DNA of 52,548 nucleotides, taken from IMG/VR virus record IMGVR_UViG_3300025000_000022, positions 1 through 52,548 of that record; one strand, 5' to 3'. Position numbers and translations under genes: made by a program. Position 1 is the stretch's first letter. Every line of letters begins with the position of its first letter. This DNA comes from a virus (lineage: Duplodnaviria; Caudoviricetes). Positions 1-52,548 of the stretch are shown one piece after another. The notes beneath the pieces are model-generated. The model worked only from the letters and a program-made list of their open reading frames with translations. It had not been told where the DNA came from and did not search any database.

Positions 1-149
1 CTAAAGGATAGTCGTTGAACCTTTCTCTAATATATTAGAGACTTGGCTGCGGATTACTCAATCTTTTAATATATTAAAAGCTCTAAGAGCTTCCCCGACA
101 ATTAAAGAAGATTCATATATATGTCACCACATATATGGGCATTTAGTTT
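1..149 (-). ncRNA. Group I intron (5' part, truncated by window edge) inserted after D-Y-D-G in the beta'-like RNAP gene
   Basis: The minus strand begins AAACTAAATGCCCATATATGTGGTGAC right after exon ...GATGGT (ends in U; P1 GGU|A pairs with UGCC). It contains Q-like AATCCGCAGC and R-like TTCAACGACTA, and is nearly identical to the 5' part of the intron at 51306-52079. Confidence 0.88.
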
Positions 150-158
150 ACCATCATA
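150..158 (-). CDS. rpoC: 9-nt micro-exon (TAT GAT GGT = Y-D-G) of the beta'-like RNAP subunit, part of the catalytic DxDGD motif
   Basis: Joined to the upstream exon end GGT GGG GAT it gives LGGD-YDG, matching NADFDGD. Group I introns flank it on both sides. Confidence 0.85.
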
Positions 159-533
159 TATTTTACCTATATTTTCATATAGAATGGACTATCTTATCAC
201 CATACAGATAATAGAAAGTATTATCTGATTAGGGTCCTGTGCTTCCCAACCAGCCCGCAAACTGGTTAGTACCTCTAATCACTTATATTATATAAGTTTT
301 CAATTAGTCTCTATATTCCTATGAATTAAGATTAATTCATAAAAACACGGTATTACCAAGCTAACCATATTTCAGGTCCTTAGGGTCTCTTACGAAGCAT
401 ATTCGTCGGCTGTCAAATACCGCTTATTTCCGCTTCTACCGTTAGCAAGAGTTAAACTCTCACACCGCTTGTTAGGCGTTCACAGGATTTTTTACTATGC
501 CGTTTCCAACATAGGGGGACCATGATTGATCAA
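159..533 (-). ncRNA. Group I intron (IA-like, different family from the other four), no ORF, apparent terminal A
   Basis: P1 GGGGAU/GUCCCC; P2 with GAAA loop; P3 UCCUGUG/CACAGGA; P7 GAGACUA/UAGUCC; P7.1 and P7.2 hairpins; P9 CUAUAU-GAAA-AUAUAG; P10 AUCAUG pairing with exon UAUGAU. Confidence 0.88.
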
Positions 534-1218
534 ATCCCCACCGAGACCTGTTAAATACAGGTTTGACATTGTTACTGTATCAGCAAAGGCAACAGAAACT
601 TTATCTTTAGGCATTTTAATATATATTTTAGGGTAGTGCTCATATACCCTAGAACCAACAAACATAGGTATAGTTTCATGTGTTGATAAAACATGTATTT
701 TATTAGGAAAGGTACCGAAGTAATCTAAAACAGGGTATCTTGTTATATATACATGTTTATCAGAAGTAATTTCAACTGCTGCTTGATATAAAATATCACA
801 CCACGTAGCAGGTCTTTGAACTAAAGGTGATTCTGTTTCAGGAACACCTTTAATAAATTCTCTACCAATAAAGCTTAAATAAATATTTTTATCATATTTA
901 GGATCATCTACCGGTAATTTAATTTTTTCAAATCTATCACCATAACTAGATATAAATCTATTAATTTGTTTCTCAATATATTCATCATTAAAATATAATT
1001 CAGGAGATTTTAATTTAACATAAATAATTTCTTCTGTCTTTAATCTAACGGGATATTTCATATAAAGTCGTTCTAATTCTCTTTGAAAAAATCTTTTTAC
1101 CCATGAAATCATATATGGTGTACATAATGAACAGCATTGTGATAAGGGAATACCACAATTATAAAAATCAACTTTCATTTCTTCTGATTTATTTGCTTTG
1201 AATATTGGTGCTGAAATT
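534..1218 (-). CDS. rpoC: Exon 2 of phage RNA polymerase beta'-like subunit
   Basis: Reads (V)ISAPIF...GIPL...ITRYPVL (compare NRAPTL)...LTGLGGD, and is in frame with exon 1 after removing 1219-1596. Confidence 0.9.
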
Positions 1219-1596
1219 CGTTGTATTCACATAGATCGTTAATCTATGCAGTTCTCTTATGAACTTCCCTAGTTTTCACTAGGATACTAGACTATATCTT
1301 CATCATTTGATGGTTCCCTGTTTCGATTTAAGGGATTCTCACCCACTCACTTAAGCCCTACTCTACTCACTTTATTTACCAATATTTATTTTAATGGTAA
1401 ACAAGTTTTTGATAGTCGTTGAACTTTATTCCTCAATAATATTATAGGAATCTTAGCTGCGGATAACCCAATCTATTACCTTGTTACCATATCTAAGGCA
1501 TTACCCTTCGCCACTAATATATTACTATATTAGTTTGGTAGTAAGAGATTTAAAAGGCTTCCCCGACAATTAAAGAATCACGTGCATTGTAATTTT
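1219..1596 (-). ncRNA. Group I intron (IA-like), no ORF, inside the RSV|ISAP motif of beta'
   Basis: The 5' exon ends AGTGT and pairs with IGS GCAC; P10 AAATT/AATTT; R TTCAACGACTA; S GAAGATATAGTCT; ends ...ACAACG. Splicing restores GTA ATT TCA GCA CCA (V-I-S-A-P). Confidence 0.92.
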
Positions 1597-2315
1597 ACAC
1601 TCCTAACACCAAAATCTATTGATTTACCTAATAATGATTTACGAATCAATCCTTGTTTCTTTTCTATCTTACCTTTAAGTAAATCATAAATTTCAACAAG
1701 AGTTTCTTGAATTTTAGATTTAGTTGTATTTAAAACAAAATCAAAACTATTGCTGTTATTTAACATGGAAGCAAATCTAATTAATTTAGCATATTTATCA
1801 TTAATTTCATGATGAGATACTCTTCCTTCAGATGCAAATTGTAAATTCACATCTCTAAAAAAAGCAGGCATAACAACCCAATATTTAGTAAATAAAACAT
1901 CTTTTCCATATGAATCTAAAACAGAAATTCTTTCATTTCTCATCATACTATTATTTCTTTTAAAATTAAATTTATCCCAATTTTTATATAAGAATTCTAT
2001 TCCACTTTCACCATTTTCATCTTCAATTAATTCTCCATCTTTGATTATAAAATTTACATTACCATAAACAGCAGATTCAAATTTCCTATTCATTCTTTTT
2101 AATGTCTTAAATATAAAAGGATGTAAAAAATGTCCATGTAAATCTATATAAGCATATGTTTCTTTTCTATCTCTAGCAGAAACTCCAAATATATCTGTTG
2201 ACAATAATCCATCAACAGTTGGAATATTCCCTTTTTCAAATAGAATTAAATTAGTTACTTCTCTTAGATTATTCACTTCAATAAATTTTTTAGTATCATA
2301 TAATTCTATTTGCAT
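1597..2315 (-). CDS. rpoC: Exon 1 of phage RNA polymerase beta'-like subunit
   Basis: GLLSTDIFG, YAYIDL..HFLHP and KKQGLIRKSLLGKSIDFGVRSV match conserved RpoC motifs (GLFCxxIFG, GHIEL, [23 protein letters not shown]). Confidence 0.93.
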
Positions 2316-4483: not shown

Positions 4484-4903
4484 TTATATATTATTAATAC
4501 CTTCTTCAATATTATAATTAAAGAGTATATCACCAGAGTTATTTTTAGTAAAACCGAGAAGTAATGTAGTATTATCTGTTAATATTGGGATAGAAACCAT
4601 TAAAATACCTTGGCCTTTATAATCAGCAACAAATACTTTTACTTCACCCATATTTAAATAAGGTATTAAAGCTGGACATTGTTTATATATATTTTCTTTA
4701 AGACCATCAACATCAATACCATCTTCAAGATTATATAGATACTGTTTTATATTTATACCTATATGTGGTAAACTTGGTATATTACCAGGTCTCATAAAAA
4801 ATAAATTAATTATAATTTGAGCAATTGATTGATTAATACTAAGAACTCTTTGTCTTTGAAAATTATCTAATCCGAAATCAACTTCCTTTTTAAAATTAGC
4901 CAT
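4484..4903 (-). CDS. gp25-like baseplate wedge / sheath initiator
   Basis: SIAQIIINLFFMRPGNIPSLPHIGINIKQYLY resembles the GPW/gp25 signature (IxNILxTxxGERxxxPxFG). Confidence 0.7.
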   Translation of the reverse strand: MANFKKEVDFGLDNFQRQRVLSINQSIAQIIINLFFMRPGNIPSLPHIGINIKQYLYNLEDGIDVDGLKENIYKQCPALIPYLNMGEVKVFVADYKGQGILMVSIPILTDNTTLLLGFTKNNSGDILFNYNIEEGINNI

Positions 4904-5009
4904 AATATATAAAAACCACCACCTTAAAATAATAAATGAATATTAATGAAATGTATTATAAGTAAATTAATAATATCTATAAAACAATAATTTAAAAAAA
5001 TATAAAGGA

Positions 5010-5411
5010 GTGACTAAAATGAATCAATTAGTAGAAATTTTATCTATATTGTCAGTGTTATCAGTTTTAATATTAGCTATAGTTCTTTTTCATCCAAATA
5101 ATAAAAAACAAAATATTATCAATAATATTCAAGATTTAGATATTTTAATGAATATTATTGATAATACTATAAAAAGAATATTTTTAGAAAAATATAAATT
5201 AGAATATGAATTAAAAGATATGAGGATGATTTATGATTTTAAAAAAGATTTAAATGAATTAGTATATAAAGTTGTAATGTCATTCAATAAACCTTTTATG
5301 AAAAGTCTTCAATATTATTATACTGAAACTTATATAATAAGTTATATAACTAAAACTATTGAAATGATGTTAATGGACTTTATAAAAGAAAAAAAATTAA
5401 AATTCAAGTAG
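5010..5411 (+). CDS. Hypothetical protein with N-terminal transmembrane helix
   Basis: Hydrophobic ILSILSVLSVLILAIVLF; AAGGAG RBS; AACA-N6-TA motif at 4983-4994. Confidence 0.75.
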   Translation: MTKMNQLVEILSILSVLSVLILAIVLFHPNNKKQNIINNIQDLDILMNIIDNTIKRIFLEKYKLEYELKDMRMIYDFKKDLNELVYKVVMSFNKPFMKSLQYYYTETYIISYITKTIEMMLMDFIKEKKLKFK

Positions 5412-5494: not shown

Positions 5495-8400
5495 TTGTGT
5501 TTAAAATTGATTAAGTGTATTATATGTAATGACAAATTTAATCATATTGAAGACTTGTATGAACATTTTGAAGATGAACATAATGAAAGTATACCTAAAA
5601 ATTTCACTCCAGCTCAATATATATATTTTTTAAAAACAGGTAAAGATAAAGGTAAATGTATTGTATGTAAAAGACCAACTAAATGGAATGAAGTTACTAA
5701 TAAATATTTAAGATTTTGCCCATTAATGCAATGCAAAGATAAGTATAGAGAATTATTTAAAGAAAGAATGATTGGTAAGTATGGTAAAATACATTTATTA
5801 AATAGTCCTGAACAACAAAAAAAGATGTTAGCTAATAGAAAGATATCAGGTGAATATATTTGGTCTGATGGAACTAAAAAAACATATACTGGTTCATATG
5901 AATTAGATCTATTAAAATTTTTAGATATATTTTTAAGATTTAGTTCAGAAGATGTAATGACACCATCACCTCATGTATATTATTATGAATATGAAGGTGA
6001 AGAAAAATTTTATATACCCGATGCGTTTATACCATCTTTGAATTTAGAAATAGAGGTAAAAACTGGCAAAGATAATGAAAATAATCATCCTAAGATCCAA
6101 GCTGTAGATAAAGTTAAAGAAAGATTAAAAGATAAAGTGTTAATGAGTCAATCAACCTTTAATTATATAAAGCTTACTAATAAGAATTATGACGCTTTAT
6201 TTGAATTTTTGAAACAAGCTAAAGAAAGATTTATTGAATCAAATGGTGAAGATAATAAACCTATATTTGTTTTAATGGAGTCTTATGAAAATATTATTGA
6301 TGTTGATATCATAATGGAGGTTGAATATCACCGTGCATTAAGAATATTAGGTGATACAAAAGATAAAGAAAAATTAGGACCAAGAGAATTTTATAATAAA
6401 GTAGCTTTTAGATATATTTATAAAGTTGGTAATAAAAATGCTGGATTCATTGAAGTAAAAGTTAAAAAAGGTTACGCTTTCTTTAATATATTCATTAAAG
6501 AAGAATTTCGTGGTAAAGGTATATCACACGCTTTAATGAATGAGGGTCTTGAATTTTGTCATCGTTCTAAAAGAGATATAAATACAATGGTTTTAAATAT
6601 AAAAAAAACTAATAATATTTCTATTAAATTGGCTAAAAAATATGGATTTAAAGAACAAAAAAGTGATAAAGTTAATAAAACTCATATTAGGTTTATTAAA
6701 CTTGTTGGAGAATTTGTTAAAGAATCATTTATAAAAGAAAATAAAGATGAAAAAGCTATTGATCTCAGCTATGATATAAGACCAGATTCTGATTATAATT
6801 CTGAACAATTAAAGATTGGTATAGAAATTGAACAGGAACACACTAAAAATTTAGATAAAGCTAGAATGATTGCTAAAGATCATTTAGATGAAATTCCTGA
6901 TTATTATAGCAGATTAGTTAAAATGGAAAAAGAAGCTGAGGGAGAGAAAGATATTATTAGTAAAGAATCATTTTTTAATGCAGATGAATTAAAAAATATT
7001 AAGATTAAAGTACCTATTATAACTTTCCCAAAAAAAGAATGGAGTAGTATAAAGAAAAGACTTAATTCTGGTAAAGTTGTTTATACTATTCGTGTATATG
7101 TTGAAAGACATAAATATGTAGAAAACAATGTTTATCAAACTGAGTGGGGAACCGCTGTACAAGTTATTAGTGTTAATGAAATAAAAAGTATAAATGAATA
7201 TGAATTTAAAGAATATTTAGATGATGAGATGAAAAAGGATATTGGTGGTGCTAGAAAATTAGAAGTTATAGCTTTAAAGAAAATAAATGATTCATACATC
7301 TCTGAAACATATTATAAAGTTAAAGATTCAAAAATATCTGGTAAAGGTATATTTGCAAATAAAAATGTTGATGTTAATACCAAATTATTAGCTATAAAAA
7401 AAGTTGATAATACTGGTAATCCAGATAAAGATTATGAACGAACTAAAGCCGGTCAATTCGTTAATCATTCAAATAATCCTAATTTAGTATTAGTTCAAGC
7501 TATTAGAAATGGGAAGAAAGTTTATTTCTATAAATCTAAAGATAAAATTAAAAAAGGTGAAGAATTAACTATAGATTATAGACAATTTGATTTTGAGGGT
7601 AAAAGAGATTTTGTAAAAGAATCTTCTTTTATTAAAAATATACCCGATGCTATAAATAAGGAAACAAAAATATATTTTGCAATAACTAAAGATGAGATAA
7701 AATTGGATAAATTAGTTTATACTAGTGATAATAAAAATAAAGTCATTAATATGTCTATAAATAATATGATTAAATCTATTATAGAACAAAAACTAGAAAA
7801 TTTATTAACTCATTATGTTGAAATCCCCGTTTCATCAACTTCAGAAATTAAAATAAATACTAATATAATTTCTGATGATAAATTTGATTTTACATCAATA
7901 GATACTCCTTTTACTATAGATCTAAAAAAATATCCTATACGTGAAATTATTTATGATAACTTAACTGAATCATATAATAATAATTTATATCCTGTATTTA
8001 TACTATTAACTTTTACTAATACTAATATGGCTAAAGCTATTAAGTTTGTTACTGGTGAACCGTATAGTCATGTAAGTATTTCTTTTGATAGTAGTATGAA
8101 TGATATGTATAGCTTTGGTAGAAAATTTAAAGATTCTAATATGACTTTTATTAATGAAGATATAAAAGATGGATTATTTAAAGATGTTATTAAAGATACA
8201 ATTTATTCATTATATGTAATATTTGTTACTAAAGAACAAAAAGAATTAATGATAAATAAATTAGAAGAGTTTAAAAAGAAAAAAGACAAATTAAAATTTA
8301 ATTTTATTGGATTATTTAATATATCTATCGGTAAAGAAACTGACAGACAAAATGAATATTTTTGTAGTCAATTTGTAGCTGAGATATTAAAAGCTTCTAA

Positions 8401-9916
8401 TAATGGTATGATTGATAAACATCCTAGTTTATATAAACCATATGATTTTGCTAAACATAAAGAAACTCATTTTGTAACTAAGGGTAAATTAGAAAATTAC
8501 GATAAGGATATAGTAGATCAAAATGTATTAAAAATAACAAATAAATATGAAATTGTAAAAGAAAGTATTGGTAAAGATGAAAAAATAGATTTTATATTAC
8601 CAATTAAAAATCTAAAAGAAGGTGAATTATTAGTTATAAATACCCATATTACCAATATTACTTTTATTGAATCTTTAACTAATATTTTTGAATTATTAAT
8701 GTCAGCAATTCAAAAAAGCTCACCAGCACTAGCAGTTCCACTTTTTTCAATAAGAAATTTATTGACTCAAATGTTTGCTTTAGACTTTATGGGTTTTAAT
8801 ATAAAAACTAAAATGAATTATAAATCTGATAAAAATAATAATGATGATTTTTATATATTTAATGCTGAATTAGTTGCTGTTTCTGATGGAGAAATAATTG
8901 ATTGTTCCGATAAAATGGAAGATAAATTTAGTATAAAAAGATCCGCTGGTAACTATATTATCATTAAACATAATATTTTGTGTTATTCATTGTATGGTCA
9001 TATTAAAAAAGGATCAATTAAAGTTAAAAAAGGTGATAAAGTTAAACAAGGTCAAGTTATTGCTAATGTTGGAAATTCTGGTGCTGGAAGTGAACCACAT
9101 CTACATTATCAACTATGTTATTTAGATCCTAAAGTTATTGATTTGAAACTGTTTTCAATAATGCCAACTCTTAGCAGTAAACCATTAGAAAACTTTAAAA
9201 ATTTTTTACAATACCCTATTAATAAATCGCTTCTTTCAACATCAATGAATAATTTAGTATCCTTATATCAATATACTGCTAATGAATTAAATAAAATTGA
9301 TAAAATTAAATATGAATTAAATAGAGATGGGGAAATACCTCCATTTGGTTTTGTGAGAAATAAGACAATAAATGAAAATACTATTATAAAAGAAGAAAAT
9401 AATGATTATATTATTACCGAATTATATTTAACTGATTTACCTAATTTTAATAATGATGAAGATGTTTATAATTTTATGAGAAATAATATTAAGAATTCTG
9501 ATTTCAATATATTAAAAAATGATGATGAACTTATTGAATCTCAAAATGGTTCATCTCATGAACAAGCAATATTTATTCGTAATTTATTTAATAACAATAA
9601 ATTATATAAAGCTAGTTGTTTATTCTTTATTGAATATAATGAAAAAGAAAACACAGGAGGATTTAATCATACTTTATGTTATTATGTTAAAGATGAAAAG
9701 ATTTATTGGATTGAAACTTCTTGGGGTGAACAACTAGGAATTCATGGCCCTTTTAATTCTTTAATACATCTAAAACAATATATTGAGGATATTCATATTA
9801 AAATGGAATCAAATAATAAATATCCTGTATTAATATGGAATACTTTACCTAATAAAATTGAATATGGTTTAGATTTAAATTCTTATGTGTTGTTTTGTTT
9901 AAATATTAAAAAATAA
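5495..9916 (+). CDS. Large multidomain protein: Zn fingers, PD-(D/E)xK nuclease, GNAT, DUF5661-like, SET, permuted NlpC/P60, M23 peptidase, transglutaminase-like (start probably TTG at 5507)
   Basis: Motifs in order: CxxC..H..H; YIPDAF..LEIEVK; EEFRGKGIS..N..S.KL..KYGF; GIEIEQEH..IAKDHLDEIPDYY; GKGIFA..FVNHSNNPN..GEELTIDY; PYSHVSIS..YFCSQFVA; YGHI..VGNSG..PHLHY; HT.CYY..YWIETSW. Confidence 0.85.
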   Translation: MCLKLIKCIICNDKFNHIEDLYEHFEDEHNESIPKNFTPAQYIYFLKTGKDKGKCIVCKRPTKWNEVTNKYLRFCPLMQCKDKYRELFKERMIGKYGKIHLLNSPEQQKKMLANRKISGEYIWSDGTKKTYTGSYELDLLKFLDIFLRFSSEDVMTPSPHVYYYEYEGEEKFYIPDAFIPSLNLEIEVKTGKDNENNHPKIQAVDKVKERLKDKVLMSQSTFNYIKLTNKNYDALFEFLKQAKERFIESNGEDNKPIFVLMESYENIIDVDIIMEVEYHRALRILGDTKDKEKLGPREFYNKVAFRYIYKVGNKNAGFIEVKVKKGYAFFNIFIKEEFRGKGISHALMNEGLEFCHRSKRDINTMVLNIKKTNNISIKLAKKYGFKEQKSDKVNKTHIRFIKLVGEFVKESFIKENKDEKAIDLSYDIRPDSDYNSEQLKIGIEIEQEHTKNLDKARMIAKDHLDEIPDYYSRLVKMEKEAEGEKDIISKESFFNADELKNIKIKVPIITFPKKEWSSIKKRLNSGKVVYTIRVYVERHKYVENNVYQTEWGTAVQVISVNEIKSINEYEFKEYLDDEMKKDIGGARKLEVIALKKINDSYISETYYKVKDSKISGKGIFANKNVDVNTKLLAIKKVDNTGNPDKDYERTKAGQFVNHSNNPNLVLVQAIRNGKKVYFYKSKDKIKKGEELTIDYRQFDFEGKRDFVKESSFIKNIPDAINKETKIYFAITKDEIKLDKLVYTSDNKNKVINMSINNMIKSIIEQKLENLLTHYVEIPVSSTSEIKINTNIISDDKFDFTSIDTPFTIDLKKYPIREIIYDNLTESYNNNLYPVFILLTFTNTNMAKAIKFVTGEPYSHVSISFDSSMNDMYSFGRKFKDSNMTFINEDIKDGLFKDVIKDTIYSLYVIFVTKEQKELMINKLEEFKKKKDKLKFNFIGLFNISIGKETDRQNEYFCSQFVAEILKASNNGMIDKHPSLYKPYDFAKHKETHFVTKGKLENYDKDIVDQNVLKITNKYEIVKESIGKDEKIDFILPIKNLKEGELLVINTHITNITFIESLTNIFELLMSAIQKSSPALAVPLFSIRNLLTQMFALDFMGFNIKTKMNYKSDKNNNDDFYIFNAELVAVSDGEIIDCSDKMEDKFSIKRSAGNYIIIKHNILCYSLYGHIKKGSIKVKKGDKVKQGQVIANVGNSGAGSEPHLHYQLCYLDPKVIDLKLFSIMPTLSSKPLENFKNFLQYPINKSLLSTSMNNLVSLYQYTANELNKIDKIKYELNRDGEIPPFGFVRNKTINENTIIKEENNDYIITELYLTDLPNFNNDEDVYNFMRNNIKNSDFNILKNDDELIESQNGSSHEQAIFIRNLFNNNKLYKASCLFFIEYNEKENTGGFNHTLCYYVKDEKIYWIETSWGEQLGIHGPFNSLIHLKQYIEDIHIKMESNNKYPVLIWNTLPNKIEYGLDLNSYVLFCLNIKK

Positions 9917-38091: not shown

Positions 38092-41000
38092 TTAAAGAGT
38101 TCTACCACCAGCTATCTTTTTAGCTATTTCATACTCTCGTTGTTCTTTACTATTACCATTATTATTACTTTTCTCATTCATAGACTGAAAAAATGGTGTA
38201 ACAAATGTATTTTTAGGTTGCTGAGAATTAACATTGATATTGTTAACTTGATTATTACCTTTTTCTTCATTGTTATTATTATTACTTATATTAACTATTA
38301 AATCTTTGTTAGCTATTTCAGCAATACCTTTTGATGTTGTATTAGTATTTATTGCAATTTCTTTTAATACGGTAATTAATTCATTAAGTGATATATTTGA
38401 ATTCTGTGAATTACTGTTATTAATGTATTCGCCCATTCTATTATTTAAACTTTCAAATATATTACGATTATATCTAATTTTAGTACTCTTATATTTATTT
38501 AAAACAGATGATGTTAAATCTCCTAAACCACCAGAGAATTTATTTGAATTAGATGAGTTATTATTAAATATAATATTACTATCTTCACCAAAACCACCAG
38601 ATGTTTTATTAAAATTAGATTGAATACTGAAATTACCATTACCTCCAACTTCTGGAGTCCAACCAGATAATTTAGAATAAGTATTTTTTATCCTACTAGA
38701 ATATATTCCTTTATTACCCCAATAACTTTTATTTTTAAATTCATCCATAAAATGTTCGAATTCAGATTTCCCACCATTATCTGGATTATATTTCGCTAAA
38801 AAGGTTTTAACTAAATTTGGACCCGTATTAGCAAAATCAGCAAGAAATGCTATTGATCTTGGATCTTTTATTTTATTAGTATCAACCCCATATTTATATA
38901 CTGGGGCTAAATTAGTATCTCTAATATATGATAAAGCCATATCATTTTGAACTTTTTGACTTACACTAATATTATCTCTAAGGAATTTTTTCAATCTTGC
39001 TCTTTGTGATTCACTCCAAGGACTTTGATTACCCCAATTTACTTGATTAGCAAAATAATTAGCTTCACTATTACCAGGTAATTGTTCATACATTCTTTGC
39101 ATTAATGATTTGGCATTGTTACCTCTCCATTGTAATATACCTATAGATGGAGAAATTGTTGCTCCAGTTGACGCATTTCTATCATTATTAGAACTAGTAT
39201 AATCACCTGATGATTCAGAACCAACAGATAATTCTAATGTTTTCTTTAAAATAGATTCTTGTAATGTTTTAGGTATAAAATTAGTTAAACTATTATTAGA
39301 ATCATTAGTTATTGAAACATTAAAATCATTACTTTTACCTTCTTCATCCCATGACACTAACTTATTCGTCCCATTCATTAAATTCTCATTATATAATGTA
39401 AATGCTTCGGTCATTTTTGCAAATAAGTCTAGTGTTGTTAATTTTTTGTTTGTTCCACTATTCAGTTCATTATTGTTATCTGACGAAACTATATTTGGAG
39501 GTAAGGTTCCACCATTATAACTAAAAGCCCAACCTTGTCTAGCTTCTTTAGTTACTTTATCAAAATTGTATAGTTTAGAAAATTTGGGTCCTCTAGGATC
39601 ATTTATTAAAACATTTCCATTTGCATCTCTTCCAACAGCAACAACATAATGTCCACCTGGCGTAAAAGGAGATTCAGTTAATGGGTATTTATCTCTTTTT
39701 CCAGATAAAATTACAGGCATACCATTATTAAGATAATTCATTGTATTAGAAGGATTAATTGTTGAAGTATCTAAACTAAAATCCTTAGCAACTTTATTAA
39801 AGTAACCCCATGTTGTTCCATCATTTGTACTATAACCACCATCTTGTGCTATTTTAGCTAATTGAGGTGGTTCATATCTTTTACCTGTTAATTGACTAAC
39901 AACCATTGCCATAGAAGTTGGTCCACAACCTCTAGCAGACAAAGTTGGATGAATTGAGTGTCCTGAACTTAAATCATATTTTGATTTTCCCCATCTATCA
40001 TCATATTGAGAATAATATGCGAAATTATTAAGTTGATTTGGTTCTTCACCAAACCCACCTTTACTCTCACTACCATTTCCACCTAATAATAAATTTATTT
40101 TATTTGTTGAATATCCCTGTTTAACTAATTGATTTGTTATATATTCATTACTTTTACCTTGTTTGCGTGCTTCTTTAATCTGATTTATAGTGCTACTTTC
40201 AGTCACTTTATTTATTAAAATTTCTACTTTGTTACTAGCAAAATCTGTTACAGATATAGCATTTCCTTTATTATCTTTAAATCCTAATAAACTACCTAGC
40301 CATTTATCAAAATTCTCAAAGGCTTTTGGTAATTTTTCAGTTAATTTTTTCCATTTTTCTGCAACAAAATCCTTTGTACTATTCCAGTATGTTCTAGCAC
40401 CTTCACTAATATCATTCCAACTATCTCTCACACCTTTTAGAATTTCATCATATTTTTTATTAAATTGAGTTGTGAAACTAACATCATCACCATTATCATC
40501 TTTAAAGCCGAATAGTTTTCCTAATGTAGTATTAGTATCTTTCATCCAATTTGATATATCATTTTTAGTTTCACTCCATGATTTTTTTACACCAGTAACA
40601 GCATTATTCCAACCATCTTTAATCGAATCAGTAAATTTAGTAACACCGTCTACAATGTTAACTCTACCAGTTTCTAAAATTCTACCAACTTTTTCTGATT
40701 TTATATAACCAAGTGTTGAACTTTCAACAAATCCACTAATACCAGATAATACTCTTTGTGTGGATGATACTTTACTATCATCAAATAAACCTAAATTAGA
40801 TCTAGTTTTATCAATACTAAAATTATTAGTGAAATCACCAAATGACGATTTATTATATAGTGTCGAAAAATCATTCTTAACTTTTGAAAGTGGATTACTA
40901 ATAAATTTTTGGAAAAAAGTTTTATTTTGTTTATCATTAAATGCATTTAAAGATAAATTGGTATTATTTTCTTTATTGTATTTATCTTTATCCTCTTCAA

Positions 41001-44000
41001 AAACTTTTTCATTCATTTCTAATTTTTTAAGTTCTTCTGAACTTGCTAGTATTGAATAAATTGTTGTAGCTACATATTGTTTTAAACTTGTTCCAGTTTG
41101 CTCATTAAATATTTCTGATAAAATATCAATTACAGGAAAGAACCCAACTAATGATTTGGTTATAGATGATGCTATTCTCATTTTTGTATCTATTGACTCT
41201 TCCCTAACTTTAAATATTCTCGATGCTTCATATGCACCTGTAGCTAAATCCCATGAGATTATCACTGGTGCTGCAAATATTTTTGCTCCAGTTTTTAAAA
41301 AAGCCATTGACAGTTTACCCATATATTTAAACATGGATTTATAATTTAATACTTTTGTGACAGTGTTTATTATTGTACTAGATATTTTTGCTGCTGCTGG
41401 ACCTAATTTATTTTTAACAAATGAATTATTAAAGAATCTCTCAAAAGTATTTTTAATAGCTTGAATAATTTTATTAGAGTCGTTTACTGTAACTTCTTTA
41501 ACTATTTTACCAGTTTCATCTGTTACCTTAAAAGATACATCTATAGCCCCATTTCTAACAACATTAGGTGTAGAAAAAGCATTTTTTAAATTAGATCCAT
41601 ATTTAACAATATTCTTTGTAAAATTAGAATTTTTTATTTTATCTGTAACTCCAGCTAAAGAATTCACTATTTTAGAACCATGTCTTCTAGCGGTAATTAA
41701 ACCACCTTTAACTAAACTTTCTCTATATTGTCCATTTATTATTTTTTTATTAGTTACTCCATTTTCATCAACATCTTGACGACTTTCATCATTTTTTTCA
41801 CCTAAATTTATTATTCCATTACCAATTTCAGGAATAGAAGGAAATTTACCTTTAATCCATTGTATAATATCTTTTAAATAAGGAATTAATAATAATAAAC
41901 CGGCTGTAAGCAATCCTTTTGAACCAAATATTGATAACCAGCTATCATGTTGACTTTTTGTAGTATCAGCAATACGTTGTAATAGTGATGTTTGTTTCAC
42001 TTCATTATTTCTGGTAAAATCTTTTTCATTTCTTAAATTATTTTGAGCTATTAAAAATCCTGCTGTTTTTCTAGAAACATCCTTTTGGTCTTGTTGTAAT
42101 TCAGATTCTTTATTTCTTTCTTTCTGTCTGTTCTCTTCTTCAATATCATTTTGATTATCAAATAAATTAAGAGCACCTAATAAGGAACTACTTATATCAC
42201 TACCCATATTTTTTAAACCTGGTGGTAAACCAGGAACATTAAATGACGAATTCCTTTGCTGTGATTGATTTATATTAAAATAAACTGGTATTGGTCTATC
42301 TGAACCAACTATTTTAACGGGAGTAATAATATTATTAGAAATAGAAGTTCCTTTTATATTATTAGTAAGATTTGATTTATTATCACCTATTTGTCTAACT
42401 ACATCAATTATACCACCTGTTATATACATTTCTGAACGATTTATACCCATTGATCTACCAATTAAATCGGCTGCAAATCTTAATGGTGAAGTAGCTATTT
42501 TAAATAATGATTTAGTAGCAGATGTTAATAATCCCCCAACACTTTTCATTACACCAAAACCAAAGTCCATAATCATTTTAGTTGATGTTAATAGAAAGTC
42601 ACCTACAACTGGAACAATACTCATGAGTCCCTTAGTAAAAGTTGAAATTGTTGAACCAATAGCTTCACCAATCCCATAAGCAACTTGACCTATACCTTTA
42701 CCAATACCTATCATTGATTCAGCAATCATTCCCATTGTACCTGAAAATAATTTAGCAACACCTTTAAGAGTTTCACCAATAGCAGGTGCTATCATTTTTA
42801 CTGATTCAGCAAATATTTTTGTAGTCTGAGCAAATAAATTTAATAATTGACCAGGTAATTTAACTATAGTTAAAAATGTCTCTTTACCTATTGATAATAT
42901 TTCAGAACCTATATTATACATAGTTGAAAATATTTGTTTAGGTACAGTAACTAATATTGTCTTACTAAAATCAAATATTTTTTTACCAACAGAAGTAATT
43001 TTATCAGTTACAAATTGAATAGAGCCCATAACTTTCTCTTTAATAGTGTCTATAGGTTTATATAACATTTTTCTAACTTTACCTAATAATCCAACTCTGT
43101 CTCTATTTGAACTACCACTTAAATCTTCATCTGATATACCTTGTTGTGATTGAATCAACTTTCTTATTTTATACACATTACCACCAACACCATCAAGCTG
43201 ACCATTAACTTCTTTAGCAATGGTTCTAACATCTCCTGCTATTTGAATTATTAATTCATCTTTTGATTTAATTCTACCAATAGATGTTTTTTTAGTTGGT
43301 TGTGTAATTTGACTAATAGTTGGCTGAGATATAGATGAATCTTCTGTTTGTTGTTGATTTATATTTGGTTGATTTGTAGGTGAAGTTGTTGATTTTTTAC
43401 CTCTTCTTCTACTCCCACCTGTTCTTTTGTTTATAACGTCTGTAACATCATCTACAATTGAAGATGTGTCACCTTGTTGAATTGAGCCTGGTAATATAAT
43501 TACACTTTGATCATTTACAGGTTTAGGATTAGGTCTACCTCTTCTTCGACCACCAGTTCTATTATTTATATTATTCGTAGTATCATTAATTGGATTTGAT
43601 GACATTTGTTCATTTCTTCGTTCTTCAGGACTTGAATATTGACCTCTAACAACTTTACCATCAGGGCTAAAATTGTCATAATTATTATTAATACCAGCTC
43701 TTTTTCTATCTCTCCATGCACTCCACATTTTTCTTATTTCTTCTCTTTTAGATCCAAATTCAGCATTAGCGTCATCTTCTCTTTTTTGTCTATCAATTTC
43801 TAACTGTTTAGCATATGGTGCACCCTGACTACTATTTCTAGCATCAGCTCTAGCTTGTCTATTGAAATAAATATCTTTAAATTTCTTTAAACCACCAAAG
43901 AAACCCATTCTTTCTTTACGTTCCCGTCTACCTTTAAAATCTAATAAGTCATTCCAACCTTCTTCTACATAAGCATCTAAACCAGCCTGCATATGTTTTT

Positions 44001-47000
44001 TAGTTAAACCTTTTGATAGACCTTCCATTCCTTTAAATGGTGCAGAAACTATACTACCAACTATTCTGCCAATTCCACCTAATATTTTTGACATAAAACC
44101 TCTTAATGGTTTCATAACTCTATCTTCCATAAATTTACCAAAAGGCACACCTACATGTTTTTCAAATACATCTCCGATAAAAGTTTTAAAACTGGTCCAA
44201 CCTTCTACAAAATTATCTTTTAAACTTCTTATCATTAATTTTATTTCATGTTTAATTGGATCAATTGCATTAAGAAATGGGTTAGCAATACTTCTTGTAA
44301 ACCATTCTTTAACATTTAAATTTATTTCTTGTAATTTAATCTTAAAGGGTTGAAGAACTTCTAAATTAGTCCAATTAATAACTTTACCTAATATACCACC
44401 TTTTCTTAATTGAGTTTCTTCATCAAATTCTCCAAATAATGCTTTTTTCCATTTTTCAGATGATAAAGCTATACCAGCAGCGGCTCCTAATAAAGCTCCA
44501 CCTAAAGGTCCACCAGGTAATAAAGCGGCACCTAATAAACCGAATTTACTTGTAATTAATCCTATACCCGCACCACCTAATATACCTGCACTAACATTAC
44601 CAAACATTTTTTTAGCCTTAGCTTTATCAACTTTACCAAATACTTTTTCAGCTATTCCACCAAGTCTAGTTCCATCTGCTTTTAAATCACCAAACATAAA
44701 TTTCTTAAACTTTTCTGAACTAGCTAACATTGATACTCCAACACCAAATAAAGCACCGCCAATAGGACCACCAGGTAAAAAGAATGAAGGTAAAAAACCA
44801 AAACCTAATATAGATTTAAGAGCTCCTAAAGTAGCACCACCAACAATACCAACTTTGTTCTTCTTAAAGAACTCTTGAGTTTTCTTAGTAACATATCCAC
44901 CAATTCTGGTTCCATTAATATCTTTAGGACCAAATAACCAATCTTTAAATTTATCTGATTGTGATAAGAAACCAACTGTGGTACCTACAATAGCTCCACC
45001 TAATGGACCACCAGGTAAAAATAATGAACCTAATAAACCTAATTTACCACCCATTAATAAACCACTACCAGCTCCAACAATACCAAATGATAATGCTTTG
45101 GGTAATCTTTCTTTAAATTTTTTAAATAAATCCCCAACTATTACATAGTTTTTATTATCTTTACCACCAATTTTACGTGGACCAAAAATAGCATCTGAAA
45201 AGTTTTGAAAACCATCTTTTATACTATTAACAGCAGTTGAAAGTACACCTTTTTCTTGTATATTACCATCTTGATTTCTTCTACCAAATAAATATGATGT
45301 TATAGTATTTTTAAAACCTGAGAACATTGATTTTAATTCACCAAATACACTCTTATTATTACTAGGAAAAGAAACTCCTGATCTATTTATATAAGCTTTA
45401 CCAGTAAAATAATATTTAGCATTATCAAATATATCTAAAAGATGATTAGATGTATCTGAAAACATTCCACCTTTTCTTTTACCAGTAGAATCTTTTAAAC
45501 CAAATAAAAAATCTGTTAATTTACTAAAATTAGATTTAACTCCTTTAAAAAATTCAGAATCTTTTAATTTAGTTATAAAACCATTAGGACCAAATAAAGA
45601 TTCTCTAATTGGAGTAAATATTTTATCTTTAAACCATTCTGTCATTGTTTGAAATTTACTTTGCATTAAAGCCCAGCTTCTATTAAGAAAAGATGAATTA
45701 CCACTTTCATCATCACCAAAAATTATCTTAAACATACTATTATCTATTTTTTTAAATACAGTATTAAGTAATTTTGCAGGAGTGTTAAAAATATCTCTTA
45801 CTTTTTCTCTTAATAAATTATATTTAGTTTGCATATCACCCGATATAAAACTTCCCAACCATCCACTCTGTTGTCTTCTATCTCTTTCAGAATCACTTCT
45901 TCTTTGTTCATCAAATATTCTAATTTGGTCTCTCATTTCTTCAGCAGTTATATCGGAATTTGATAACCTATTTACTATTTTTTTACCTTGTTGTCTATTA
46001 ATTCTTTCTAGCTCGGGTGTAATCTCAATGTCTTGTTGTGGTTTTACTTTGAATTTTCTATCTCTTTCTCTTTCTTGAGTTCTCATTCTTCTTAATTGTC
46101 TATCATGATATTCAAAACTTGGTTGAGAAACTGAACCATCCGGATTAATTAATTGAGTTACAGGAAATACTTTAATACCCCTTAATAAAATCTCTTTAAT
46201 ATCACGAAAATAATCTAAATCAGATTTACCAAATTGATCAGTTCTAGATAAAACACCAAAACCTTTTTTTACTTCAAATTGATTTCTATTATTTTTATTT
46301 CTTTTAATATGGTCATCAAAAGATAATTGATTATTAAGAATAGCCGCATTATATCTTAATGGGTCATTTTCCATATCAGTAAATATTTTTTCTTTATTCT
46401 TTCTAGCATTTAATACATCTGCACCAAACATTTTTTGTATATCACCTTTATTAAGTGATAATACTATTTGTCTAAAAAAATTATTCATTTCTTCACTACC
46501 AAAATCATGAACATTTTTCAATTCATTTATATTAGCTCCACTTTTATCTTTAGTTCTTACAGGATTTACTAATTTATTTAAAGTAGGTAGTTTTAAGAAA
46601 AAACTTTCTAAATCTTTATTAAATTTTTTTCTTTCTTCATCATTTTGAATATTAAAAGCATTAGCTTTATCTTTTATTTCACTCATAACATCTGAAAAAC
46701 TATTTAACACAGTTCTATTAACAGTACTTTGGAAATCTTTTTTCATAGAATCCATAGAATTGAATATACCTTTGTCATAATCAAATCCGACTTCTTCTTT
46801 ACCATTTAATGCAGCTAAAATCTTTCTTAAATATCCTGGTATAACTTCAGTTATAGATTTTCTTGTTTGACCATCAAAAGGAACTGCACCTTTATCATAT
46901 TGAGATAAATCGACAGATGATTTTTGTTTTACGTTTATACCAAAAACTTGACCTAAAAAATTTAATATAGGATTATCAGAACCAACCATTCTATTAGCTT

Positions 47001-48057
47001 TCATCAATAAAGCTGGAAAGAAATTTTCAAAACTTTTATTCATACTAGTTAAAGTTTGTTTTAACATTGATGGAATAAATGCAGATACTATTTTGGTAGA
47101 TAAAAAACTTATAGGTGATGCGGCTAAAAATTTTAATTGATCTTTATCTGATAACATATATTTTAACTGAGATAAAATCATATCTTGATCTACAGCTGCA
47201 CCAAATTGTTTTTTAACTAAATTAGCATAACCGGATAAATTTAATCCACCTTTAGATAAAAAAACTGATTCCATTGGATCAACTTTTTCTTTAACAACTT
47301 TCTCTTCAGATGAACCTTTTTTCATTTGATTATGAATATTATTAAATGCATTTAAACTTTCTTCATAATATTTAAAAGTTGTACTTATATATCTGGTCAT
47401 TGATTCACTTTGAAAATTAACAAGTAGGCTTAAATTATCATTTATTGCACTTAATCCTCTATTTAAATCTTCACCAAGTTTTCTATTTATCATCATATGA
47501 TTAGTAGCTAAAGATATAGATATTTTATCACTAGCTTGAGTTGTATTATATATAGCTTCAGTTTGTCTTTCTACAGCTTTGACCATAGGATTATTTCTAT
47601 TAATATTAGAAGAAACAATTACTCTATTAATAGTAGGTGAACCACTTTCAGATGTTGTTTCAGAAGATACTTTATAATCATCATTTTCAAAATTTAATTC
47701 ATCACCAAATTCAAAATCTATATCATCTTTAAATATTTCATTCTGTCTATCTTTATTATATATTTTACCTGACTTAATATCTTTTAAAGCATTTTTTATT
47801 GCCGTTTGACCTATATTAATATATTCATTCTTAACCATTTGATCTGATAATTTTTTACTTAAAGATTTACTTTGTCTTAAATCATTATAGAAATTTTTAA
47901 ATGTTTCGGTATTACTTTTAATAAAATCTATTGGTGCTGGAATCATTTCTTCAATTAATTCAGTTGTAGTATATCCTAAGGATTTACCAACATTTTTAAA
48001 CCAATTTAAAGCTGTAGGTGATTTAGATTTAATTTTAGTTCTATTTTTTATCTCCAA
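38092..48057 (-). CDS. Giant tape-measure-like virion protein with C39-like peptidase and lysozyme-like C-terminal domains
   Basis: 3321 aa, largely helical; three Gly-rich hydrophobic LPGGP(L/I)GGA repeats; YYSQ.D.RW..GCGPTSMAMV..GHYVV..INDP (C39-like); SESSGDY..SIGILQW (lysozyme-like); late promoter at 48094-48105. Confidence 0.8.
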   Translation of the reverse strand: MEIKNRTKIKSKSPTALNWFKNVGKSLGYTTTELIEEMIPAPIDFIKSNTETFKNFYNDLRQSKSLSKKLSDQMVKNEYINIGQTAIKNALKDIKSGKIYNKDRQNEIFKDDIDFEFGDELNFENDDYKVSSETTSESGSPTINRVIVSSNINRNNPMVKAVERQTEAIYNTTQASDKISISLATNHMMINRKLGEDLNRGLSAINDNLSLLVNFQSESMTRYISTTFKYYEESLNAFNNIHNQMKKGSSEEKVVKEKVDPMESVFLSKGGLNLSGYANLVKKQFGAAVDQDMILSQLKYMLSDKDQLKFLAASPISFLSTKIVSAFIPSMLKQTLTSMNKSFENFFPALLMKANRMVGSDNPILNFLGQVFGINVKQKSSVDLSQYDKGAVPFDGQTRKSITEVIPGYLRKILAALNGKEEVGFDYDKGIFNSMDSMKKDFQSTVNRTVLNSFSDVMSEIKDKANAFNIQNDEERKKFNKDLESFFLKLPTLNKLVNPVRTKDKSGANINELKNVHDFGSEEMNNFFRQIVLSLNKGDIQKMFGADVLNARKNKEKIFTDMENDPLRYNAAILNNQLSFDDHIKRNKNNRNQFEVKKGFGVLSRTDQFGKSDLDYFRDIKEILLRGIKVFPVTQLINPDGSVSQPSFEYHDRQLRRMRTQERERDRKFKVKPQQDIEITPELERINRQQGKKIVNRLSNSDITAEEMRDQIRIFDEQRRSDSERDRRQQSGWLGSFISGDMQTKYNLLREKVRDIFNTPAKLLNTVFKKIDNSMFKIIFGDDESGNSSFLNRSWALMQSKFQTMTEWFKDKIFTPIRESLFGPNGFITKLKDSEFFKGVKSNFSKLTDFLFGLKDSTGKRKGGMFSDTSNHLLDIFDNAKYYFTGKAYINRSGVSFPSNNKSVFGELKSMFSGFKNTITSYLFGRRNQDGNIQEKGVLSTAVNSIKDGFQNFSDAIFGPRKIGGKDNKNYVIVGDLFKKFKERLPKALSFGIVGAGSGLLMGGKLGLLGSLFLPGGPLGGAIVGTTVGFLSQSDKFKDWLFGPKDINGTRIGGYVTKKTQEFFKKNKVGIVGGATLGALKSILGFGFLPSFFLPGGPIGGALFGVGVSMLASSEKFKKFMFGDLKADGTRLGGIAEKVFGKVDKAKAKKMFGNVSAGILGGAGIGLITSKFGLLGAALLPGGPLGGALLGAAAGIALSSEKWKKALFGEFDEETQLRKGGILGKVINWTNLEVLQPFKIKLQEINLNVKEWFTRSIANPFLNAIDPIKHEIKLMIRSLKDNFVEGWTSFKTFIGDVFEKHVGVPFGKFMEDRVMKPLRGFMSKILGGIGRIVGSIVSAPFKGMEGLSKGLTKKHMQAGLDAYVEEGWNDLLDFKGRRERKERMGFFGGLKKFKDIYFNRQARADARNSSQGAPYAKQLEIDRQKREDDANAEFGSKREEIRKMWSAWRDRKRAGINNNYDNFSPDGKVVRGQYSSPEERRNEQMSSNPINDTTNNINNRTGGRRRGRPNPKPVNDQSVIILPGSIQQGDTSSIVDDVTDVINKRTGGSRRRGKKSTTSPTNQPNINQQQTEDSSISQPTISQITQPTKKTSIGRIKSKDELIIQIAGDVRTIAKEVNGQLDGVGGNVYKIRKLIQSQQGISDEDLSGSSNRDRVGLLGKVRKMLYKPIDTIKEKVMGSIQFVTDKITSVGKKIFDFSKTILVTVPKQIFSTMYNIGSEILSIGKETFLTIVKLPGQLLNLFAQTTKIFAESVKMIAPAIGETLKGVAKLFSGTMGMIAESMIGIGKGIGQVAYGIGEAIGSTISTFTKGLMSIVPVVGDFLLTSTKMIMDFGFGVMKSVGGLLTSATKSLFKIATSPLRFAADLIGRSMGINRSEMYITGGIIDVVRQIGDNKSNLTNNIKGTSISNNIITPVKIVGSDRPIPVYFNINQSQQRNSSFNVPGLPPGLKNMGSDISSSLLGALNLFDNQNDIEEENRQKERNKESELQQDQKDVSRKTAGFLIAQNNLRNEKDFTRNNEVKQTSLLQRIADTTKSQHDSWLSIFGSKGLLTAGLLLLIPYLKDIIQWIKGKFPSIPEIGNGIINLGEKNDESRQDVDENGVTNKKIINGQYRESLVKGGLITARRHGSKIVNSLAGVTDKIKNSNFTKNIVKYGSNLKNAFSTPNVVRNGAIDVSFKVTDETGKIVKEVTVNDSNKIIQAIKNTFERFFNNSFVKNKLGPAAAKISSTIINTVTKVLNYKSMFKYMGKLSMAFLKTGAKIFAAPVIISWDLATGAYEASRIFKVREESIDTKMRIASSITKSLVGFFPVIDILSEIFNEQTGTSLKQYVATTIYSILASSEELKKLEMNEKVFEEDKDKYNKENNTNLSLNAFNDKQNKTFFQKFISNPLSKVKNDFSTLYNKSSFGDFTNNFSIDKTRSNLGLFDDSKVSSTQRVLSGISGFVESSTLGYIKSEKVGRILETGRVNIVDGVTKFTDSIKDGWNNAVTGVKKSWSETKNDISNWMKDTNTTLGKLFGFKDDNGDDVSFTTQFNKKYDEILKGVRDSWNDISEGARTYWNSTKDFVAEKWKKLTEKLPKAFENFDKWLGSLLGFKDNKGNAISVTDFASNKVEILINKVTESSTINQIKEARKQGKSNEYITNQLVKQGYSTNKINLLLGGNGSESKGGFGEEPNQLNNFAYYSQYDDRWGKSKYDLSSGHSIHPTLSARGCGPTSMAMVVSQLTGKRYEPPQLAKIAQDGGYSTNDGTTWGYFNKVAKDFSLDTSTINPSNTMNYLNNGMPVILSGKRDKYPLTESPFTPGGHYVVAVGRDANGNVLINDPRGPKFSKLYNFDKVTKEARQGWAFSYNGGTLPPNIVSSDNNNELNSGTNKKLTTLDLFAKMTEAFTLYNENLMNGTNKLVSWDEEGKSNDFNVSITNDSNNSLTNFIPKTLQESILKKTLELSVGSESSGDYTSSNNDRNASTGATISPSIGILQWRGNNAKSLMQRMYEQLPGNSEANYFANQVNWGNQSPWSESQRARLKKFLRDNISVSQKVQNDMALSYIRDTNLAPVYKYGVDTNKIKDPRSIAFLADFANTGPNLVKTFLAKYNPDNGGKSEFEHFMDEFKNKSYWGNKGIYSSRIKNTYSKLSGWTPEVGGNGNFSIQSNFNKTSGGFGEDSNIIFNNNSSNSNKFSGGLGDLTSSVLNKYKSTKIRYNRNIFESLNNRMGEYINNSNSQNSNISLNELITVLKEIAINTNTTSKGIAEIANKDLIVNISNNNNNEEKGNNQVNNINVNSQQPKNTFVTPFFQSMNEKSNNNGNSKEQREYEIAKKIAGGRTL

Positions 48058-49063: not shown

Positions 49064-49504
49064 ATGAATAATGTTCTTATTGAAAAAGACTGTAAAATTG
49101 TTGATGTAGTTAAAGATAAAGAAAATGAAGTGGATTGGGAAGATATAAGTATTATGCAAACTTTGTCTGAAGAGTTTATTAAAAAATTTAAAAATAGAGT
49201 AAATTGGAGTAGTATAAGTTATAATCAAACTTTATCTGAAGACTTTATTAGAGAGTTTGAAGATAGAATTAATTGGGGATTTATAAGTTGTAAACAAACT
49301 TTATCTGAAGACTTTATTAGAGAGTTTGAAGATAGATTATGTTGGGAGGATATAAGTTTTTATCAAACTTTGTCTGAAGAGTTCATTAGAGAATTTCAGG
49401 ATAAAGTTGATTGGGATATTATAATTCGTAAACAAATTTTATCTGGAGACTTTATTAGAGAGTTTATAAATTTAAATAGAATAAAGTTAGCTAGGAGATT
49501 ATAA
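49064..49504 (+). CDS. 23-aa tryptophan-repeat protein, paralogue 1 (3' end degenerate)
   Basis: Five QxLSE(D/E)FIxxF....W-type units; another repeat remnant lies after the stop at about 49505-49535. Confidence 0.8.
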   Translation: MNNVLIEKDCKIVDVVKDKENEVDWEDISIMQTLSEEFIKKFKNRVNWSSISYNQTLSEDFIREFEDRINWGFISCKQTLSEDFIREFEDRLCWEDISFYQTLSEEFIREFQDKVDWDIIIRKQILSGDFIREFINLNRIKLARRL

Positions 49505-49606
49505 AGTTTTTATCAAACTTTGTCTGAAGAATTCAAAAGACAAAATTATTTATAAATATATATTATAATTAAGATAATTAATAAAAAATTAAAGGGATGA
49601 ATTAAA

Positions 49607-52079: not shown

Positions 52080-52311
52080 ACCATTTTTTACTACTTTAGG
52101 ACTAGTATCAATTGCTTTAGTTTCTCCATTTTTATATTTAATAATAACTAAACCAGTTTCATTATTAATCTCAACAACTTCACCATCATCTTTAGCAACA
52201 ACAGAAAAATCATCAGATAAATGATATTGAATAACTTGTTCAACCCCATTAGATAGTAAAACAGGAGATTGTTTTACTACAGGCACGATATGTTTTGATT
52301 GCTTTACACTC
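52080..52311 (-). CDS. rpoB: Internal exon of the RNA polymerase beta-like subunit
   Basis: SVKQSKHIVPVVKQSPVLLSNGVE..VVAKDDGEV corresponds to RpoB NMQRQAVP....PLVGTGME...A...G.V. Confidence 0.85.
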
Positions 52312-52548
52312 CATTTATTTCACATAGGTCGTTAATCTATGCAGTTCTCTTATGAACTTCCCTAACTTTCATTAGGATATAAGACTATATCTTCATCCTT
52401 ATTATTAAATAATAAGGAGTCTCCTATTTCGATTTAAGGGATTTTCACCCACTCACTTGAGCCCTACTCCTGTTGCTTATTTCAAAGCTAAAGGATAGTC
52501 GTTGAACCTTTCTCTAATATATTAGAGACTTGGCTGCGGATTACTCAA
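52312..52548 (-). ncRNA. Group I intron (3' part, truncated by window edge)
   Basis: R TTCAACGACTA, S GAAGATATAGTCT, and a 3' domain nearly identical to that of 1219-1596; ends ...AAATAAATG before the exon (boundary uncertain by 1 nt). Confidence 0.88.

Follow-up and report, generated by a model that had tools for sequence, protein, structure and literature searches.

At the left end of the stretch of viral DNA analysed here (the window, 52,548 nucleotides) the codons of a predicted RNA polymerase active site are interrupted twice in close succession on the minus strand, which raises the question of how an intact polymerase could be made from them. Comparison with related phage sequences makes it very probable that a gene for the N-terminal part of a beta-prime subunit is broken three times by group I introns, two of them unrelated to one another and lying 9 nt apart within the motif G-G-D-Y-D-G-D, and that the message is restored by splicing. 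The relevant features are as follows.

1597..2315, minus strand: exon 1, 239 codons plus 2 nt, an open reading frame ending ...GVRSV, with a blastn match to AR9; the junction reads RSV/ISAP, compared with ...RSVISAP in AR9
1219..1596, minus strand: intron 1, group I, type A family, 378 nt, without an ORF; RF00028 46.8 bits over 1627-1267
534..1218, minus strand: exon 2, translated as ISAP...LTGLGGD; its last codon, GAT at 536-534, is that of the first catalytic Asp
159..533, minus strand: intron 2, a 'type B' group I intron of 375 nt, without an endonuclease gene; last base A159
150..158, minus strand: 9-nt exon, TAT GAT GGT (Tyr-Asp-Gly), bearing the second catalytic Asp codon at 155-153
1..149, minus strand: intron 3, a type A group I intron represented by its 5′ part; RF00028 40.0 bits on 159-1 over the first 150 model positions (1-150), cut at the window's first base
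1..61, no strand assigned: stretch of 61 bases, the same as 52488-52548; conserved type A intron core, P3-P6-P7 in the Rfam alignments
52311..52548, minus strand: 3′ part of another type A group I intron, 5′-truncated, in the beta-subunit gene; Rfam 56.3 bits

The ends of intron 1 (5′ site after T1597, terminal G1219) were placed by reading frame and by alignment with AR9, and its score is slightly below the RF00028 gathering score of 50. The arrangement around intron 2 had been described in an earlier note on this DNA as GGT GGG GAT (542-534), 375 nt (533-159) and TAT GAT GGT (158-150), and both coordinates and length are exact. The minus-strand layout with its Rfam matches exceeds chance, and the third catalytic Asp codon lies beyond the window.

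Identity of the gene and its relation to AR9

The window is read as an internal piece of an AR9-like jumbo phage genome. In a blastn search of phage records the interrupted gene matches the 'virion RNAP subunit, beta-prime N-terminus' of the Bacillus phages AR9 and PBS1. With BLASTP, exon 2 aligns to the beta-prime N protein of the AR9 virion RNAP at 32% identity (E 2e-18), and the comparison of exon 1 with AR9 shows the block GKSIDFGVRSV / GKSVDYATRSV. These matches bear out the earlier proposal that the gene encodes an RNAP beta′ subunit. Pfam finds no polymerase family in exons 1 and 2 at E <= 1, so AR9 and 27 homologous loci are the basis of the assignment. The loci come from IMG/VR contigs of 180–260 kb, and many are copies of one phage from different metagenomes. 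On this similarity we take the gene product to be the N-terminal part of beta-prime in a virion RNA polymerase like that of AR9.

The codon changes in exon 2, counted with exon 1 left out, are 39 synonymous and 12 non-synonymous relative to one close relative (L002), and 38 and 13 relative to another (L021). By these counts, purifying selection has evidently acted on exon 2.

The same gene in AR9/PBS1 (NC_031039, BI022_gp144) is joined from three pieces, and the AR9 record itself has a group I intron of the type A family inside DYDGD (Rfam 86.7 bits; ALGGDYD / intron / GDTVSLRG), in agreement with the earlier statement that introns occur in the RNAP genes of AR9-like phages. This is the one intron in the AR9 motif; it follows DYD, 3 nt upstream of the type A site in the window, and AR9 has no micro-exon. 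Homing endonuclease genes are present in the AR9 introns. The other AR9 intron lies elsewhere and scores as group II (RF02004 80.7 bits, RF00029 55.2 bits).

The catalytic motif in related loci

Several patterns emerge from an alignment of the homologous loci. First, the motif is unbroken in 11 of the 27 (L003-8, L011, L012, L022, L027 and L028), as G-[LI]-[GD]-G-D-[YF]-D-G-D-Q; these are the intron-less homologues with which the earlier note proposed an alignment, and they read GGDYDGDQ or DGDFDGDQ. Secondly, the other 16 are broken inside the GGDYDGD stretch of seven codons. Six positions are used: after GG (L014, L015, L023), after the first Asp by a type B intron (seven loci: L009, L010, L016-L020), after Tyr (L024-L026), after the second Asp (L013, the same position as in AR9), after Gly (L021, and the second intron of L009/L010) and after the third Asp (L002). 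For L014/15, L023 and L024-L026 an 'intron' denotes an interrupted frame, together with a resumed DYDGDQ exon in L014/15 and L023; no downstream exon was found in L024-L026, and L014, L023 and L024 have no Rfam match at E <= 0.001.

Thirdly, the two nearest relatives of the window have one intron each. L021 (94% identical) has a type A intron after the Gly codon (4694-5023) and no other in the motif, after which the gene continues with GAT CAA... for 54 codons to a stop. In L002 (95% identical) the intron follows the third Asp; it is of type B and contains a GIY-YIG ORF. The full double layout is present in a more distant relative, L010 (65% identical), with a 9-nt exon at 5797-5805; the order there is GAT, a 1109-nt type B intron with a GIY-YIG ORF and a terminal G, TAC GAC GGT, a 255-nt type A intron with a terminal G, and GAT CAG GTT. 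The same double layout with a 9-nt exon also occurs in the other polymerase paralogue of L051 (NAD / FDG / DILN). In both L021 and L010 the type A intron ends in G and the next exon opens with GAT; the earlier note was correct to put the last Asp outside the window. Its reading of two back-to-back group I introns around a 9-nt exon is likewise borne out, by the intron-less homologues, the single-intron relatives and a relative with the double layout, although it overlooked both the terminal A of the first intron and the intron repeats at the window ends.

The layout takes to an extreme something that these phages are known to do. It shows how far selfish introns crowd one essential site, since two positions can be filled at once, leaving an exon of three codons. 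Because the three exons carry one Mg-binding Asp each, an active enzyme would need both ribozymes to be accurate.

The type B element as a group I intron

With Rfam the type B element is poorly recognised: RF00028 on 543-166 scores 20.5 bits, weak against the gathering score (E 0.57 for the whole window, 0.0056 for 521 bases). Among seven loci scanned, of which at least five carry a type B member (L002, L010, L016, L029, L043), none of these members reaches E 0.01, and a blastn search of 140-560 against 50,697 phage records gave no match. The family was gathered instead by a conserved 23-nt pattern, giving 25 loci and, with the window, 17 distinct sequences.

An unbiased scan was made of every possible splice-site pair. 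At the motif, three of them rebuild G-G-D-[YF]-D-G, each with its sites 375 nt apart, and the pair chosen in the earlier note has 12/12 pairs with the intron guide. A pair farther upstream (5′ site -94, giving FADYDG, with 9/12 guide pairs) was dismissed as spurious. For L041 and L050 the scan gave no site pair and the sites were placed by short exon motifs, as was that of L036, whose intron lies beyond the motif.

The helices are well supported by comparison. P1 of the window (GGGGAT/GTCCCC) is paired at 6/6 positions with its last U opposite G, and averages 5.3/6 over the 17 members; P10 is 6/6 in the window, with a family average of 4.6/6 compared with 2.8 for shuffled exons. The guide ATCATGGTCCCC thus makes 12/12 pairs with TATGAT and the end of exon 2 taken together, and the guide covaries with the use of TAT (window and L043) or TAC (L039, likewise 12/12) in the exon; that of L030 makes 11/12 pairs at the correct placement. 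P3 is 7/7 in 16 of the 17 members, the window included, and 6/7 in the remaining one, and its nine different triplets match their own partners at 2.94/3 compared with 1.65/3 for cross pairings. In an alignment of 14 3′ domains, 93% of the cells in P7, P9 and the hairpin between P7 and P3′ are paired, compared with 77% in shuffles (0/500 of which reach 93%) and 28–43% with slid partners, and 15 of the 20 pairs show compensatory changes. P8 is seen in the single-sequence fold alone, and the fold z-score of the window's element is -4.36. Because P1, P3, P7, P9 and P10 covary across the relatives, we regard the 375-nt element as a real group I intron despite its poor Rfam score. Hairpins of the P7.1/P7.2 type between P7 and P3′ suggest that it would belong to subgroup IA.

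Type B members are also found after the first Asp of NADFDGD in a second polymerase, and two (L035, L037) follow an Asp codon of another gene, possibly a DNA polymerase gene, as judged only from the exon translation. In the window's intron, the central 116 nt (332-447) are 98.3% identical to those of the L002 intron, which lies elsewhere in the motif, behind the third Asp; the exons on either side are about 92% identical between the two, and the 5′ and 3′ parts of the intron are far more diverged (about 71% identity in the 3′ part). The intron thus looks like a mosaic, as though recombination had swapped the guide and the 3′ domain.

Sharing of the 9-nt exon between two ribozymes

We propose that each intron is a selfish mobile ribozyme aimed at the most conserved DNA of an essential gene, and that the type B intron, which follows the codon of the first Asp, once had a GIY-YIG endonuclease gene that is now gone; the type A intron follows the Gly codon. 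Two independent splicing events would restore the message. In the first, the guide would bring together the end of exon 2, paired in P1, and bases 1-6 of the 9-nt exon, paired in P10; in the second, P1 of the type A ribozyme would be formed with bases 5-9 of that exon. Both introns presumably still splice, in some order, and the missing last exon is predicted to have about 54 codons starting with Asp, as in L021.

Although the type A intron is cut by the window end, its complete orthologues score above the gathering threshold (L021 76.4, L010 69.8 and L051 61 bits). The dual role that the earlier note gave to the 9-nt exon, as P10 partner of one ribozyme and P1 strand of the next, agrees with the pairings: bases 1-6 match the type B guide (6/6), and by eye bases 5-9 (ATGGT) match GCC(C)AT in the type A intron, a pairing that puts U.G at the splice site and needs one C to bulge out. 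In L010, P1 is ACGGT/GCCGT and P10 takes up bases 2-6. In L051 the second intron follows TTCGACGGC, with C as the last base of the 5′ exon, and its guide carries A at the place of the G in L010; by eye, the wobble at that splice site would thus be C.A rather than U.G. When viral contigs were scanned for the 9-nt exon followed by the start of the type A intron, only the record of L021 was found.

From the paired bases, P10 and P1 overlap by two bases in both the window and L010, and nine bases cannot dock two ribozyme cores at once. Both points are in favour of the tight spacing being a device, in which the shared exon forces or times the order of splicing and thereby regulates polymerase production. 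However, the same sites are singly occupied in close relatives (L021; L016-L020), the use of six sites in seven codons over the 27 loci fits independent selfish insertions, and P10 is in general dispensable, and we consider a regulatory device of this kind rather improbable.

A further possibility is that the whole is one composite intron or twintron, from which the 9 bases are removed together with the outer intron. Nested or abutting introns do exist in these phages, as seen from a pair of group I introns 0–2 nt apart in L054. Removal of the 9 bases would, however, delete the Tyr-Asp-Gly that is kept in 11/11 uninterrupted homologues; moreover, the type B guide pairs with these very bases, and the first intron of L010 ends in G directly before the 9-nt exon. 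A composite intron is thus very improbable. If the 9-nt stretch is indeed an exon, as we favour, it is a natural substrate for asking how two ribozymes share a short exon and avoid skipping it.

The terminal A of the type B intron

A 3′-terminal G (omega G) is near-universal in group I introns. The type B intron of the window ends in ...GGTAAAATA, with A at position 159, and no splice-site pair that restores D-[YF]-D-G gives a terminal G in the scan of all site pairs. Candidate 3′ sites at G167, G166, G155 and G152 yield a stop or a frameshift. The base itself is backed by contigs of three samples without differences.

A terminal G is present in 15 of the 17 distinct type B members, the exceptions being the window and the L029 group. 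The latter is an unrelated member represented by five contigs from five metagenomes, in which a terminal A is needed for DFDGD (P10 5/6). In this group (L029, L031, L032, L034, L038) the intron is GC-richer, ends in A and lies in another polymerase gene (QMGAD...DGDTVSVKA); its sole G-terminal alternative adds three residues to the catalytic loop.

The guanosine-binding pair in P7 of the window is still G-C, as in the relatives (alignment columns 56-200), which rules out a nucleoside pocket retuned for A. J8/7 is more unusual, with GATAAGA before TAGTC in the window compared with GAAGATA-like sequences in the other 13 aligned members. A scan of metagenome contigs for the deviant 20-nt J8/7-P7 stretch gave one chance match, in an unrelated 3.3-kb contig, and the adjoining contig was not recovered.

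These features could mean that the type B intron is decaying and has lost exon ligation, which would leave this polymerase gene copy dead or with hardly any expression. The terminal A and the want of any G-terminal alternative, the missing endonuclease gene, the deviant J8/7 and a pocket that has not been retuned for A are all as expected of a decaying intron. Against it, synonymous changes in exon 2 exceed non-synonymous ones by about 3:1 relative to two relatives, P1 plus P10 (12/12) and P3 (7/7) are intact, an identical sequence is present in three samples at a depth of 5–20, the L029 group also needs a terminal A, and the hexacoral mitochondrial intron ND5-717 is described as joining its exons perfectly in vivo without a terminal G (PMC6545197). 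On balance decay seems unlikely. Because exon 2 has been under purifying selection and the terminal A recurs in the L029 group, we lean towards continued splicing, perhaps at lower efficiency, although the intron may have been disabled in the recent past.

Whether the intron completes exon ligation with a 3′-terminal A and a G-C guanosine-binding pair, inside active-site codons and with a 9-nt exon shared with a second ribozyme, is a more specific proposal, in which the strong P10 or the neighbouring intron would compensate; we put its chances at a little below even. If it is true then, together with the L029 group, the terminal A arose at least twice in one phage intron family. The terminal A also makes this intron a natural case in which to probe the strictness of the terminal-G rule.

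Strain variation, assembly and the ends of the window

Independent contigs from the Logan assemblies of three samples of one groundwater study cross the type B intron and the 9-nt exon and enter the type A intron by 25 bases, without differences (X1 record 7, 125-1254; X2 record 9 and X4 record 25, 125-361). All Logan contigs break at the intron repeats, and none reaches the next exon. In runs X2-X4 there are also contigs in which 533 is connected to 447 through unknown letters; 624-1234 is covered in the same samples by variant contigs that differ by 8–10%. The 533-447 joint and the variant contigs are compatible with a co-occurring L002-like strain that would have its intron elsewhere in the same motif.

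A second strain in the same runs, and window ends that both lie in intron repeats, might be taken to mean that the double layout is an assembly chimera of two co-occurring strains with one intron each. However, the spanning contigs were made by an independent assembler from three samples and cross the junction of the two introns without differences, and the two strains would share just 9 bases there. A chimera is therefore scarcely credible.

The first and last 61 bases of the window are identical, an exact overlap that lies in the conserved core of type A introns. A circular join of the two ends does not provide the missing exon: the exon that results runs E-C-K... into a stop codon or falls out of frame, and does not start with Asp. 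The right-end intron half is the sole match above the gathering score in the window, and precedes exons of the beta-subunit gene (Pfam RNA_pol_Rpb2_6, 25.9 bits). In both relatives searched the beta exon shares a strand with the beta-prime gene and is located 49–50 kb 5′ of it, and in the window the distance is 51 kb. Because the join gives the wrong exon and the gene order of the relatives agrees, we interpret the window as a linear fragment between two intron copies. The intron repeats have thus broken the assembly and produced a false 61-nt terminal repeat, which could be misread as that of a circular genome.

Comparison with known systems

Tandem group I introns on either side of a short exon, with exon skipping, are reported for orf142 of Staphylococcus phage Twort and for the Coxiella burnetii 23S rRNA (PMC10136302). 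According to the parts of that source that deal with them, those exons are 23 nt and 34 nt long, whereas here the exon is 9 nt, a catalytic residue lies inside it and the introns are of different types. Mitochondrial mini-exons under about four codons between group I/II introns are said to 'occur regularly' (PMC10352661); these are organellar, and the pertinent part of that source does not describe a polymerase active site, in contrast to the phage RNAP active site of the window. A micro-exon between group I introns in a phage was not found in the literature searched, supplements aside.

Insertion at polymerase active sites has a precedent in gp210 of the jumbo phage PhiPA3, a virion RNAP beta-like gene with a mobile group I intron and homing endonuclease right after the catalytic Asp residues (PMC11620839). 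As described in the relevant part of that source, the PhiPA3 case concerns a beta subunit and a single intron with an HNH enzyme that has a demonstrated role in phage competition, whereas that of the window concerns beta-prime and is known from sequence alone.

For the terminal A, the closest parallel is again hexacoral ND5-717, which like the type B intron has no terminal G; that intron is organellar, giant and vertically inherited, and the one described here is from a phage (PMC6545197).

Introns of the beta-subunit gene and other features

The beta-subunit gene of one relative (G002, L054 731-1499) contains two abutting group I introns, with Rfam scores of 61 and 60.4 bits. The second (1105-1499, 395 nt) begins either 2 nt after or 1 nt before the terminal G of the first, and its guide GTCGC pairs with the last three bases of the first intron plus AT; the beta gene of relative G001 (L055) is without this second intron. 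The intron half at 52311-52548 of the window is the orthologue of the second L054 intron (78.5% identity over 321 aligned columns).

A further type A intron, of 774 nt, is located in the beta gene of the window at 51306-52079 (minus strand), after ...KVVKNG. Within it, in antisense orientation, is an ORF of 114 aa (51567-51911, plus strand) with no Pfam match, and a similar antisense ORF is present in an intron of the same beta gene in L055.

In the AR9 record (L001) the first intervening sequence, 6167-6340 and 7580-7664, scores as group II, and the record's note on the HNH gene that it encloses says 'group I intron'. A paper on group II introns in phages reportedly mentions AR9.

Elsewhere in the window there are very long ORFs at 38092-48057 (minus strand, 3321 aa) and 5495-9916 (plus strand, 1473 aa), and two adjacent ORFs at 49064-50299 (plus strand, 146 and 230 aa) that are made up of a tandemly repeated motif, about 20 residues long (...LSEDFIREFQDKVDW...).
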